The translations under genes and the position numbers were made by a program. A DNA stretch of 64,000 nucleotides from an uncultured Erysipelotrichaceae bacterium. Lineage in GTDB: Bacteria; Bacillota_I; Bacilli_A; Erysipelotrichales; Erysipelotrichaceae. The stretch lies in NCBI GenBank assembly GCA_944326055.1, contig CALVCT010000021.1, forward strand, positions 6,087 through 70,086, in the 5' to 3' direction. Under the pieces are notes generated by a model that was not told the DNA's origin, ran no database searches, and was given only the letters and a program-made list of their open reading frames with translations. Below, in pieces: positions 2,401-58,682 of this stretch (positions within the stretch are counted from its first letter, which is position 1; the number at the start of each line of letters is the position of its first letter).

Positions 2401-3772
2401 TCAGGCTTCATAGACGAAGTTACCATCGACCATTGTGGCGAGGACTTTGGTCTTAAGGATGTCTTTAGGAGCGATGTCAAAGAGATCTTTATCTAGGATG
2501 ACAAGATCAGCGAGATAGCCATCCTTGAGGCGGCCTTTTTTAAGTTCCATGAACTCATCATAAGCACTGCCGATCGTATAGTCGTCGATCGCTTGCGTCA
2601 GCGTTAGAGCTTCCTCTTTATAAAAGCTATCTTGAGGCTCGCCATTTAGGTTCTTTCTGGTGATCGCACAATAGATATTAGCGAAGGGATCAAGGTCTTC
2701 AACAGGTGAGTCGGTGCCTAGAGAGACATGTATGCCTAAGCGATGCATCGAGGCAAAGGCATAGCTGGCGCTCGCAAGTTTTTTTACCGACACGATCTTC
2801 GACGATCGAAGTGTCATAGTGTAAGAAGATCGGTTGGATCTTGGCTAGGATATCTAGGTCAGCCATCCTTTGAAGCAGTGGCTGATCGGTGATCTGGACA
2901 TGGATGATCGCATGCCTTAGGTCATTCAGCTTACCTATGACTTTAGCGTAGCTATCGATGACCATCTCGATACCACCATCACCGATCGCATGAGTTGCGA
3001 CTTGGATCTTATGCGCATCAGCTAACATGACCAGCTCATCGAGCTCATCTTGGGATAGGGTGGCGATACCTGAGGTACTAGGGTCATCATGATAGGGACT
3101 ACGCATCAGGGCCGTCCTTGCCCCCAATGAACCATCGATGAATAGCTTTAAAGGGCCGATCTTATGTAGATCATCACCAACACCGGTATGATATCCTTCT
3201 TTGATGAATTCTTCAAAGGACGCTTTATGCATGAAGTTGCATTGATGATAGACACGAAGGATGGGCAGATCCTTTAAGACCTCTTTATAGTCAGCTAGGG
3301 TCTTTTGCCATGAGCCTTCACGTAGGTCCATGGTCTGAACGCTAGTCAAGCCATGACTTACCGCATGATAGATAGCTTTTCTTAAAGCCAGCTGTCTTTG
3401 CGCTGGGGTCTTTTCTTTGATGATCTTTTTGACCATGGCACAGGCGTTCTCCTTAAGGATGCCCGTAAGCTCGCCAGCTCAATCATGGTCGATCTCACCA
3501 CCTGCGACAGCGATCGTATCCTTAGTGATACCAGCTAAGCTTAGAGCCTTGGAGTTAGCTGTCAGGATATGACCACAGGCCCTTTCCATGATGATGGGGT
3601 ATTCTTTATTGACTTCATCGAGGTCATCTTTGGTGAGTAAGCGACGCTCGTCAGTAAAGTAGTCTTGGTTCCATCCCATACCATGGATGACAGTATCTTT
3701 AGGTAGGTCTTCCTTAGCGATGAAAGCTCTGATCCGCTCTTTGACCTCCTTCTTGCAAAATAAAAGCTGCAT
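2401..3772 (-). pseudogene. Decayed YtcJ-like metal-dependent amidohydrolase (amidohydrolase_3 family), in three pieces and missing its N-terminus
   Basis: ORFs 3479..3772, 2699..3436 and 2401..2817 read as consecutive parts of one amidohydrolase. Pieces 1 and 2 are in frame, separated by TGA at 3479-3481 (GEIDHD*AGELTGILKENACAMVKK). Pieces 2 and 3 change frame at a T7 run at 2779-2785 (A7 on the coding strand). About 90 N-terminal residues, including the HxH metal site, are absent, and TAG lies directly upstream of the first Met. Confidence 0.75.
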
Positions 3773-3804
3773 CTATCGATGCCGCCCATTCAAGATCTAG
3801 GTCA

Positions 3805-3965
3805 CCGATAGCTCCTCTGTCATCAAGACAGGAGTCATAAAGATGTTCTCCTTATGCCCAACTCACTGATGTACCCACCAGTGGTTTCGGCGGTTTGACC
3901 TTTCAGTGTCTTCAACGACTGTCGTCTCCCACACTTACTGATTCGCACCGCGCCTCTATCAACTT
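3805..3965 (-). promoter_or_regulatory. Lysine riboswitch (L-box) aptamer
   Basis: The minus strand reads GATAGAGGCGCGGTGCGAATCAGTAAGTGTGGGAGACGACAGTCGTTGAAGACACTGAAAGGTCAAACCGCCGAAACCACTGGTGGG...CCTGTCTTGATGACAGAGGAGCTATC. The hallmark L-box blocks AGAGGCGC, AGTA, GGGAG, CTGAAAGG, CCGCCGAA and CTGG are present. P1 closes by GATAG/CTATC. Confidence 0.75.
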
Positions 3966-3976
3966 TTACGGGTGCT

Positions 3977-4006
3977 TTTATAGCACGCTAGCTCTATCCT
4001 TGTCTA
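3977..4006 (-). promoter_or_regulatory. Candidate sigma-A promoter for the L-box leader
   Basis: The minus strand has TAGACA, an 18-nt spacer and TATAAA, placing a transcription start a few nt upstream of the aptamer 5' end. Confidence 0.35.
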
Positions 4007-49896: not shown

Positions 49897-50044
49897 AAAG
49901 ATCGCTTCATCTATCATTAAGATCCTCAAGCTTTATGATACAAGTAGATCTCTACCTTGATGCAATAACTAAGATGAGATCTAAAAAGAATAAGTGAAGA
50001 CATTTTCATTGATTTTATAGGGTAAAATCAGTATCATGATGAAG

Positions 50045-50246
50045 TGATCGTCAAAAGTAGTAGATAGTCAAAGCTTATAGAGAGCTCTTGTTTGGTGTAA
50101 AAGAGCAGTGTCATCTATCGAACTCGTTTGACATATAGATCGACCGCTGATCAGCGATAACGATGAAGAGTGCACATATGTCAATTCATATGTGAATTAA
50201 GGTGGTAACGCGTTTCTGACGTCCTTAAGTAGGGCGTTTTTATTTT
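50045..50246 (+). promoter_or_regulatory. T-box leader with a Leu (CUC) specifier, controlling leuS
   Basis: Stem I base GTCAAA/TTTGAC, AGTA box, AGAGA bulge and distal loop GGTGTAA. Specifier loop GAA-CTC-G (CTC at 50123-50125). T-box sequence AATTAAGGTGGTAACGCG (50196-50212). Terminator ACGTCCT-TAAGT-AGGGCGT plus TTTTTATTTT (50219-50246). Confidence 0.8.
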
Positions 50247-50259
50247 AAGGAGGAGAGTT

Positions 50260-52662
50260 ATGGCTTATACACACGATAAGACAGAAGCTAAATGGCGTAA
50301 GATCTGGGATGATGATGATCCTTGGTATACTGATACGCATGATTTCAGTAGACCCAAATATTATGTCTTAGATATGTTCCCTTATCCATCAGGAGTAGGG
50401 CTTCATGCAGGACATCCAGAAGGATATACTGCTACAGATGTCGTTGCACGTATGAAGAGGATGCAGGGATATAATGTCTTGCATCCGATGGGTTTTGATT
50501 CATTTGGTCTGCCTGCTGAACAATATGCGATACAGACTGGTAATCATCCTGAAGGTTTCACCAAGAAGAATATCGAGACTTTCAAAGATCAACTCAAGAT
50601 GTTAGGTTTCTCATATGATTGGACTAAGGAAGTTGCGACATCAGATCCAAGTTATTATAAGTGGACTCAGTGGATCTTCGAGCGTCTTTTTGAAGATGGC
50701 TATGCTAAGTATGTCGAGATGCCGGTCAACTGGTGTGAAGAACTTGGCACTGTCTTAGCTAACGATGAAGTCATCGACGGCAAATCAGAAAGAGGTGGTT
50801 ATCCTGTCGTACGTCGCAATATGCGTCAATGGATCATGGATATCCCAGCTTTCGCTGAAAGACTCTTAGAGAATCTTGATGAGCTCGATTGGCCTGAATC
50901 GACAAAAGAGATGCAGCGAAATTGGATAGGTAAGTCAACAGGTGCGGAAGTCAAGTTCACTGTCGCTGATTCAGATGAGAGCTTCATCGTCTTTACGACA
51001 CGGCCTGATACGCTTTTTGGTGCGACATATTGTGTCTTATCGCCAGAACATCCACTAGTCGATAAGATCACAAGTATTGATAAAAAAGAGGAAGTCGAGA
51101 GTTATCGTAAGAATTGTGCTAGTAAATCAGAGCTTGAGCGTACACAGCTGAATAAAGATAAGACTGGCGTCTTTATCGGTGCTTATGCGATCGATCCTGT
51201 CAATGACAAGCATATCCCTATCTATATCTCAGACTATGTCCTTATGAGTTATGGTACAGGCGCGATAATGGCTGTTCCGGCTCATGATGAAAGGGACTAT
51301 GAATTCGCTAAAAAGTTTGGTATCGAGATCATCGAAGTACTGAAAGGTGGCGATATCACAAAAGAGGCCTACACAGAAGATGGCACCCATGTGAACTCTG
51401 GATTTCTTGATGGTTTAGATAAAAAAGAAGCTATCGATAAGATCATCGCTTGGCTTGAAGAGCGTCATCTTGGCAAGCGTAAGATAAACTATCGTATCCG
51501 TGAGTGGATCTTCTCTCGTCAACGTTATTGGGGCGAACCTATTCCTGTCATCCACTATGAAGATGGCACGATAGGCATCATCGATGATGAAGATCTGCCA
51601 CTTGTCTTGCCAGAACTTGATGATTATAGCCCTTCAAAGAGTTGTGCTTCACCGCTTGAAAGAGCGACTGATTGGGTCAATGTCACATATAAAGGCAAAA
51701 AAGGCAAAAGAGAGACTAATACGATGCCAGGATCAGCTGGATCTTCATGGTATTTCTTACGTTATATCGATCCTAATAACGATAAACAGTTCGCTGATTA
51801 TGAACTTTTGAAACATTGGATGCCTGTCGATCTCTATATCGGCGGTCCAGAACATGCGGTAGGACACTTGCTTTATTCGCGCATGTGGAACAATTATCTC
51901 TATGACAAAGGTCTCGTACCATATAAGGAACCTTTCAAGAAGCTCGTCCATCAGGGCATGATCTTAGGTGAGAATGGTATCAAGATGGGCAAACGCTATC
52001 CTGAATATGCAGTAAATCCTAATGATATAGTAAGAGATTATGGTGCAGATACATTGAGACTCTATGAGATGTTTATGGGGCCACTTGGTGCTGATAAACC
52101 ATGGAGTACACAAGGTGTCATTGGTGCTCGCAAGTGGTTAGATCGTGTTTGGAGACTCATGATCGAGATGCCAGAGAAGATCTCTGAAGAGAATGATCAT
52201 ACTTTAGACTATTCATATAACTTTTTAGTCAAAAAGGTCACAAGTGACTTTGGATCTTTGGATATCAATACAGCTATCTCACAGATGATGATCTTCATCA
52301 ATGATGCCTATAAAGCTGATAAGCTCTATAAGGAGTATGCGATAAACTTCGTACAGATGCTTTCGTGTATCACGCCATTCATCGGTTATGAGATGTATGA
52401 GCGTCTTACTGGTAAAGATGATCTTACATATCGTCCTTGGCCAACATATGATGAGTCAAAACTCGTCAAAGATGAGATCGAGTATGTCGTTCAAGTCAAT
52501 GGCAAGGTCAGAGCTAAGTTCAGTGAGCGCACTGGCTTATCTAATGAAGAGATCTTAGATCTAGCCTTAACGCAAGAAAACATCAATAAGTTCGTGCCTG
52601 ATAGAGAAGCGATCAAAAAGTATTTCGTCATCAAGGGCAAGATGATCAACATCGTCGTCTAA
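50260..52662 (+). CDS. leuS: Leucyl-tRNA synthetase
   Basis: 800 aa with a class I HIGH-type motif ([14 protein letters not shown]), a KMSKS-equivalent (GIKMGKR) and a CP1 editing domain. GGAGGAG RBS. Confidence 0.95.
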
Positions 52663-57875: not shown

Positions 57876-58682
57876 ATGGCAGAATGTAATCATAACTGCA
57901 GCTCATGTAGTCAGAGTTGCGATGAAAGAGTAGAGAAGGGGCCACTACCTTCAACGAGGATCAAAAAGATCATCGGTGTCTTATCTGGTAAAGGCGGCGT
58001 TGGTAAATCGATGATCTCTGGACTATTAGCTGTGACATTAGCTAAGATGGGATATCAGGTCGGTATCATGGATGCTGATGTTACTGGGCCAAGTATTCCA
58101 AAGATCTTTGGTATCCATGGTGATACTGTCGGTGATGGTATCGGTATCTATCCAAGTCTTACTGAGAGATATCAGATCAAAGTCGCTAGTATCAATACGA
58201 TGTTGGAGAGTGAAGAGACACCAGTTATCTGGAAAGGACCACTGCTCAGTTCGATGGTCAAACAATTCTATACTGATGTCTATTGGGAAGAGCTAGATTA
58301 TCTCATTATCGATATGCCTCCTGGCACATCCGATATCGCTCTAACAGTCTTACAAGATCTTCCTATCGATGGGCTCGTGATGGTCACGGGCGCTTCAAAA
58401 CTCATTGGGATGGTCGTTGCAAAGACGATCAATCTAGCTAAAGCGACAAACACGAAGATCTTGGGCATCGTTGAGAATATGGCTTATGTTAAGTGCCCAG
58501 ATTGTAAGAAAAAGATCATGATCTATCCAGAAGATGCCTCAGAAGCTTATGCCTCAAAGTATGGTCTTGAGATCTTGGCAAAATTGCCTTTAGATCCAAC
58601 ATTAGCCAGCCTAGCTGATGAAGGTCGTATCGAAGAATATGATGGAGACGATCTGATCCGTGTTACAGAAGCCTTGAAATGA
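57876..58682 (+). CDS. Mrp/ApbC/NBP35-family Fe-S cluster carrier ATPase
   Basis: ORF 57843..58682. ATG 57876 follows AAAGGAGAG. N-terminal Cys-rich CNHNCSSCSQSC, deviant Walker A SGKGGVGKS, and CPDC motif. Confidence 0.8.
   Translation: MAECNHNCSSCSQSCDERVEKGPLPSTRIKKIIGVLSGKGGVGKSMISGLLAVTLAKMGYQVGIMDADVTGPSIPKIFGIHGDTVGDGIGIYPSLTERYQIKVASINTMLESEETPVIWKGPLLSSMVKQFYTDVYWEELDYLIIDMPPGTSDIALTVLQDLPIDGLVMVTGASKLIGMVVAKTINLAKATNTKILGIVENMAYVKCPDCKKKIMIYPEDASEAYASKYGLEILAKLPLDPTLASLADEGRIEEYDGDDLIRVTEALK

Follow-up and report, generated by a model that had tools for sequence, protein, structure and literature searches.

An orphaned lysine riboswitch, very probably a decaying relic of a lost permease–amidohydrolase operon, in an uncultured Erysipelotrichaceae bacterium

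Results

A complete lysine riboswitch precedes a broken amidohydrolase gene

We analyzed a 64,000-nucleotide stretch of the genome of an uncultured Erysipelotrichaceae bacterium (here named the window), whose minus strand carries a promoter-like site, a lysine riboswitch, an intrinsic terminator and the remnant of an amidohydrolase gene (Table 1). A previous reading of the sequence alone had recognized conserved L-box blocks and a P1 pairing at 3805-3965 on the minus strand and had proposed the Rfam covariance model as a check. This model (RF00168) confirmed the assignment and placed the aptamer at 3801-3966, with 84.0 bits, far over the gathering score of 30, and an E-value of 1.6e-20. The alignment is complete (model positions 1-182 of 182), corresponding to the full five-helix architecture closed by P1, in which UUGAUAG is paired with CUAUCGG. 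The score is close to that of the orthologous leader found before the intact operon of a congener, G008 (82.6 bits), and is higher than that of the only other lysine riboswitch of the genome, which has live cargo (72.1 bits). Judged by its sequence, the window holds a genuine, structurally complete lysine riboswitch, as a riboswitch a member of the RF00168 family.

The plausible promoter noticed upstream was also borne out, as a promoter-like site with a -35 element TAGACA (4006-4001), an 18-nt spacer and an extended -10 element TGcTATAAA (3985-3977), matching by alignment the equivalent position before the intact operon of G008. A simple scan overlooked this site because its -10 hexamer ends in A.

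The only reading frame downstream of the aptamer is the amidohydrolase remnant, detected by PF07969 with 8.3e-86 and 289.8 bits (cut-off 29.7), covering only profile positions 43-472 of 472. The truncated amidohydrolase described by the sequence-only reading as sole downstream gene, lacking about 90 residues and starting about 30 nt after the aptamer, is therefore real: in the alignment with the 531-aa G008 orthologue the first 85 residues are missing, and the nominal ATG (3772) lies 29 nt past the aptamer. The frame is interrupted by an in-frame TGA (3481-3479) and by a +1 frameshift in an A7 run (2785-2779), and no uninterrupted frame with a usable start exists in this genome. The remnant has no N-terminal HxH metal ligands, as the equivalents of G008 H63 and H65 fall in the deleted first 85 codons. 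The remaining ligand motifs are kept (GPLKLFIDGSLG, THAIGD, IIHVQ and GTDSP) and correspond by alignment to the invariant K284, H336, H366 and D429. In this genome, the riboswitch controls no live gene of lysine biosynthesis, uptake or salvage, its cargo being deleted or broken.

Table 1. Features of the riboswitch locus, in window coordinates.
Feature	Position	Strand	Basis
Promoter-like site of the leader	3977..4006	-	read from sequence; aligned with G008
Lysine riboswitch aptamer (L-box), full length	3801..3966	-	RF00168, 84.0 bits
AGGTCAAA 8-nt direct repeat, first copy	3894..3901	-	L058/L059 alignment; second copy at 3747-3740
Antiterminator (predicted)	3773..3811	-	minimum-free-energy fold of 3816-3756
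Intrinsic terminator	3757..3787	-	fold energy; terminator scan; conserved in G008
Deletion junction, GGAGGTC	3743..3749	-	alignment with G008
Amidohydro_3 (YtcJ-like) pseudogene	2401..3742	-	PF07969; equals codons 86-531

The expression platform is retained

Downstream of the aptamer, the transcript can form an intrinsic terminator (GGGC-G-GCAUC, a GAUA loop and GAUGC-A-GCUU, followed by UUUUAUUUU) with a 9-pair stem and one internal mismatch. Folding gave an energy of -11.2 kcal/mol (z = -3.6), the same hairpin was independently picked up by a terminator scan, and its counterpart in G008 has a stem of 8 perfect pairs. If P1 does not engage its 3' strand, then in the minimum-free-energy fold CUAUCGGUG (3811-3803), which is this 3' strand plus 3 nt, pairs with CAUCGAUAG (3781-3773), which comprises the 5' arm of the terminator, its loop and the first base of its 3' arm. 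This pairing, an antiterminator of -14.9 kcal/mol (-19.5 kcal/mol for its equivalent in G008), is mutually exclusive with both P1 and the terminator. The sequence-only reading had drawn one T-run hairpin after the aptamer, AGCTATCG with CGATAG, and had considered it atypical; it is actually the antiterminator, in a classical arrangement.

As promoter, terminator and antiterminator are all present, the expression platform was not deleted, and from its pairing potential we infer a textbook lysC-type OFF arrangement acting by transcription termination. With lysine bound, P1 would hold CUAUCGG and the terminator would form; without lysine, the CUAUCGG strand would pair into the terminator and transcription would read through. 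This corresponds to the mechanism of the Bacillus subtilis lysC leader, a transcription-terminating OFF L-box (PMC3082890), which likewise has an RF00168 aptamer and a P1 3' strand common to P1 and to an antiterminator competing with an intrinsic terminator, whereas the cargo in the window is non-biosynthetic and dead, and the function of its switch is predicted. The ATG at 3772-3770, nominal start of the downstream frame, sits within the 3' arm of the terminator, and the same letters in G008 also read MQLLF, indicating that it is not a real start.

Intact relatives point to a deletion of the permease and of the amidohydrolase 5' end

An alignment with related genomes, which the sequence-only reading had advised, provided the intact version of the locus and its ancestral downstream genes. 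We searched 40 relatives for a riboswitch and an amidohydrolase on one contig and found three genomes in which they are about 1.4 kb apart: G008, of the same genus (63-65% protein identity), G019, of the same family, and G025, of the same order, each with a live operon. All three share the same order, with the RF00168 riboswitch followed by a PF13520 permease (441-503 aa) and then by a PF07969 amidohydrolase (529-533 aa); permease and amidohydrolase genes either overlap by 20 nt or have a 10-nt gap between them. The permease belongs to the LAT type: among NCBIfam models, those for the L-type amino-acid transporter and FrlA match it best, though with scores far under the respective cut-offs, and among solved structures it is closest to SLC7 light chains and BasC. 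Before the loss, the riboswitch very probably controlled a LAT-type amino-acid permease gene and, translationally coupled behind it, a gene for a YtcJ-like metal amidohydrolase.

Aligned with G008, the window is colinear over promoter, aptamer and terminator, up to and including the ribosome-binding site of the permease (GGGAGGTC in G008, AGGAGGTC in the window), and then jumps to amidohydrolase codon 86 (EVKERI). Gauged on G008, about 1.64 kb are missing, namely the entire permease gene and amidohydrolase codons 1-85, and no copy of the permease or of the amidohydrolase 5' part was found elsewhere in the 98.5%-complete genome. The proposal that a deletion had removed the expression platform and the 5' coding region, or a former first gene, is thus supported for the genes, as a former first gene (the APC/LAT permease) and the amidohydrolase 5' coding region were lost, and not supported for the platform, whose terminator and antiterminator are present and kept in G008.

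The junction, GGAGGTC, matches both the G008 permease ribosome-binding site and amidohydrolase codons 86-87 (GAA GTA in G008). GAGGTC flanks the missing stretch on both sides, which makes a deletion by microhomology likely, with this motif as its probable mediator. A single deletion of about 1.64 kb in the lineage of the species would have taken the permease gene together with codons 1-85, including those of the HxH ligands. The exact breakpoints and the single event are what we infer, as the closest intact comparator is 63-65% identical and has a different upstream neighbor. An exact-protein look-up of the M24 neighbor gave no closer intact relative, nor did a first metagenome scan, while a second one gave none above 58% identity, so that G008 stays the best comparator. 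A FastTree phylogeny places the pseudogene next to the G008 gene, as its sister, within the clade of riboswitch-linked amidohydrolases described below.

As for the upstream neighbors, a long-arm tRNA gene with its terminator is found in G008 immediately upstream of the riboswitch promoter (locus L051, 962-1051), and a divergent M24 peptidase/opp operon is found in the window. The two congeners thus have the cassette in different genomic surroundings.

The locus is decaying across strains of the species

An exact-protein look-up of the flavodoxin-like neighbor led us to eight further assemblies of this species, which come from several projects and show about 98% identity. The permease was absent in all seven sequences covering the site (this genome and six assemblies). 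The junction is letter-for-letter identical in this genome and in L054-L057, and L058 and L059 show a derived form, in which 154 nt were lost between the 8-nt direct repeats AGGTCAAA, so that the aptamer lacks its 3' half and the terminator is gone. The genome is a draft fragmented into 81 contigs, and one might suspect that assembly or binning had joined the leader to an unrelated gene fragment; four further assemblies, independent and originating from different samples and projects, have the identical junction, and two more have its derived form, which effectively refutes this artefact.

The lesions of the remnant vary from strain to strain. Only this genome has the TGA and the A7 run; CGA and A6 stand in their place in all eight other assemblies. 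Translation of the TGA as tryptophan (code 4) was ruled out by the CGA found at that codon in the eight other strains and also because TGA is the commonest stop of the long frames of the window (22 of 56). Other strains carry one-base deletions at 3599, 3418, 3306 and 3125 or a 10-base deletion at 2721, and the nine sequences together contain no fewer than six different indel alleles, besides five nonsense alleles. Pseudogene alleles differ by 23 synonymous, 48 nonsynonymous and 5 nonsense changes (pN/pS 0.65), and the neighboring gene by 9 synonymous and 0 nonsynonymous changes (23:53 versus 9:0 with nonsense included, p = 7e-5). Consistent with this, 3.3% of the pseudogene sites are segregating among four strains, against 0.65% for the neighboring gene (p = 2e-4).

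We considered whether a functional, lysine-regulated short amidohydrolase might still be encoded by a 456-aa frame, the lesions of this assembly being sequencing errors. Such a frame is indeed uninterrupted in L054, two strains have frames of 425 aa, and both lesions are found in this assembly only, one of them in an A7 homopolymer and hence in an error-prone context. However, the ATG would lie inside the 3' arm of the terminator, the only Shine-Dalgarno-like sequence comes after it, and the HxH metal ligands, whose exchange for alanine leaves another PF07969 enzyme inactive (bioRxiv 10.64898/2026.04.05.716592), are missing. Together with the number of indel and nonsense alleles and with the pN/pS value, these features make a short enzyme extremely improbable.

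Among the same-species strains, the aptamer shows only two polymorphisms, U3841C in P4 and C3906U in P2, which both exchange G-U and G-C pairs, so that pairing is kept. Its fraction of segregating sites (1.2%) is lower than in the pseudogene (3.3%) and in the promoter spacer (4.9%), with differences that are not significant (p = 0.23 and 0.056). Some residual constraint on the switch is therefore possible, the aptamer being the least polymorphic part and both changes keeping the pairing. In two strains (loci L055 and L056), G4004A moved the -35 element TAGACA further from consensus, and in one strain the U-tract of the terminator is short by one U (window 3765, in minus-strand sense); both changes may represent further decay of the leader.

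These data also bear on whether the switch has been re-used and maintained, either sensing lysine and attenuating read-through, started at its own promoter, into the flavodoxin-like gene (1738-2352) or in some other role of the leader RNA. Three other strains share with this genome an intact promoter, aptamer and terminator, and no terminator-like site was detected by the terminator scan between the pseudogene and the flavodoxin-like gene; the base pairs preserved by both aptamer polymorphisms, in the least polymorphic of the non-coding parts, would also agree with re-use. On the other hand, the lower polymorphism is not significant, two strains have lost the aptamer 3' half and the terminator, two others have the -35 change away from consensus and one has the shortened U-tract. 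In addition, the flavoprotein gene, which has no known link with lysine, adjoins the amidohydrolase in only 1 of 80 related loci. We therefore regard re-use as unlikely.

The same count led us to reject the flavodoxin-like neighbor as an ancestral member of the operon. The single case is the Oscillospiraceae locus L140, where a flavodoxin-like gene (2013-2549), 43% identical to that of the window, is found just after the amidohydrolase; this adjacency is probably a coincidence.

The shared junction and the diversity of the lesions imply that the gene is dead species-wide, that the damage is no assembly error and that the switch is dispensable, and the later damage that each strain has acquired on its own is what makes the locus a decaying relic. 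We conclude that the riboswitch was very probably orphaned by a deletion that removed its cargo. The switch would have been left controlling only a dead gene, and remnant and switch would now be decaying independently across strains.

Lysine riboswitches accompany a whole clade of amidohydrolases

We scanned species-representative genomes for the closest relatives of the G008 amidohydrolase and retained, besides G008 itself, the 80 closest loci (45-54% identity to G008), including loci of Oscillospiraceae, Lachnospiraceae, Erysipelotrichales, Sutterella and Aphodousia. The order riboswitch, permease, amidohydrolase was detected by nhmmer in 45 loci and by Infernal only in 8 further loci; in 14 loci a riboswitch is found directly before the amidohydrolase, in 4 no riboswitch was detected, and 9 loci are cut by a contig end. 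A lysine riboswitch is thus found upstream in 67 of the 71 assessable species-representative loci of the clade, which spans Bacillota and Sutterella. Our home-made L-box profile (nhmmer) under-called proteobacterial leaders, and Infernal recovered 8 of 12 and 16 of 19 loci that nhmmer had scored negative; for this reason, the tallies use Infernal wherever it was run. At least 52 further riboswitch-linked loci, many of the same species, were found in a metagenome set.

In several of the 14 loci of the direct type, a permease gene located separately carries a second riboswitch. In L104, L113, L122 and L131, one lysine riboswitch belongs to the amidohydrolase and another to the permease, the two being divergently arranged in L131, which suggests that both genes are lysine-regulated individually. 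No third cassette gene is conserved, as the downstream genes vary between loci. The riboswitch-linked amidohydrolase genes form one clade in the FastTree phylogeny. More distant amidohydrolase homologues of the same order (35-41% identity) have neither riboswitch nor permease and for this reason were not counted as the same system.

The sequence-only reading had also raised the idea of a lysine-responsive amidohydrolase family, such as an acyl-lysine deacylase. At the level of regulation this idea is supported by the 67 loci; the deacylase chemistry is not, the identity to a characterized epsilon-lysine acylase being 25%. A lysine-regulated family is compatible with the relic and is no competitor to it.

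The betaproteobacterial Sutterellaceae carry the cassette as well (L112, L123, L117, L127 and many loci labeled 'Sutterella' or 'Aphodousia', cultured strains included), and the cultured carriers include Sutterella wadsworthensis DSM 14016, Sutterella seckii ASD393 and Anaerofilum hominis BX8. The Sutterellaceae amidohydrolase has about 50% protein identity to the Bacillota versions and is closer to them than the riboswitch-less paralogues of Erysipelotrichales are. This closeness suggests that the cassette, together with its riboswitch, may have moved between Bacillota and Sutterellaceae by horizontal transfer.

Discussion

Surveys of lysine riboswitch regulons list biosynthetic genes and the transporters lysP/gabP (COG0833), yvsH (COG0531), lysW/nhaC (COG1757) and lysXY (COG0834) (PMC5584792). 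The ancestral first gene of our locus is a permease of the APC superfamily (PF13520), and in this respect the intact operon fits the known rule that L-boxes control uptake genes. The second L-box of the genome is likewise on a transporter. The intact operon differs from the known cases in that its permease is of LAT type and constantly coupled to an amidohydrolase that is not listed in that survey. No hydrolase is mentioned for the lysine riboswitch regulon in PMC3766115, and in the literature searched we found no paper linking a lysine riboswitch to a YtcJ-like or COG1574 enzyme. Among published systems, the one that comes nearest is an operon of Clostridioides difficile, in which a lysine riboswitch precedes yfcC and a gene for an M20D amidohydrolase (PMC11477304). 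Both operons combine such a riboswitch with a transporter and an amide hydrolase, but the protein families differ, being YfcC and M20D in C. difficile and APC/LAT and Amidohydro_3 (YtcJ-like) here.

Concerning the substrate, the Streptomyces epsilon-lysine acylases SmELA and SgELA (EC 3.5.1.17) have been classed as YtcJ-like amidohydrolases (PMC10699109). With the intact G008 orthologue they share both superfamily and length, and over 510 colinear residues the HxH, His, His and Asp ligands are aligned; the identity, however, is 25% (G008 versus SgELA, E 1e-35), which is a superfamily-level relationship only. As the G008 enzyme is no closer to SgELA than the riboswitch-less paralogues are, this gives no evidence of a shared substrate, and we treat epsilon-lysine acylase only as a lead. 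The closest solved structures by sequence are two Pyrococcus 'uncharacterized metal-dependent hydrolases' (PDB 3IGH and 3ICJ, E 1e-59 and 2e-54), which are functionally uncharacterized and hence uninformative on the substrate.

The host appears to depend on external lysine. Neither lysA (TIGR01048) nor dapA (TIGR00674) had a match in the 98.5%-complete genome of 1.38 Mb, so the organism is probably a lysine auxotroph, which probably obtains lysine from peptides and by a riboswitch-controlled ABC importer. Indeed, the other lysine riboswitch (contig C65 of the same genome, G000, 57991-58155, minus strand; locus L002) heads genes for an ABC amino-acid binding protein and a permease. Orthologous leaders of this riboswitch precede the same binding protein in the congeners G001, G003, G009 and G010. 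The window also contains a T-box leader (RF00230, 102 bits; 50044-50229, plus strand), ordinary-looking and located directly before an 800-aa leucyl-tRNA synthetase-like gene (50260-52662).

Genes under an OFF riboswitch are expressed when lysine is short. The coupling of a permease to an amide hydrolase suggests the uptake of a lysine conjugate and the release of lysine inside the cell. We incline slightly towards the view that the intact cassette is an undescribed lysine-salvage system of gut bacteria, which under lysine shortage would import and hydrolyze a small lysine amide conjugate (N-acyl-lysine, an isopeptide or similar), which would have moved between Bacillota and Sutterellaceae, and whose death in a lysine-auxotrophic, genome-reduced, peptide-living lineage would be captured in the window.

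The relic offers a dated, population-level snapshot of the death of a riboswitch, in which the order of loss can be followed: the cargo by one deletion, then the remnant by many independent frameshifts, and finally the aptamer by slippage between 8-nt repeats. Orphan riboswitches such as this one can mislead automated regulon inference. The main value of the locus is this snapshot of riboswitch loss, together with a pointer to an uncharacterized lysine-regulated permease–amidohydrolase cassette. One clade of uncharacterized YtcJ-like amidohydrolases is marked as lysine-regulated in nearly all genomes examined, including cultured strains, and this link with lysine gives a route to assigning the substrate of a large orphan enzyme family and to the source of the lysine that gut bacteria scavenge.
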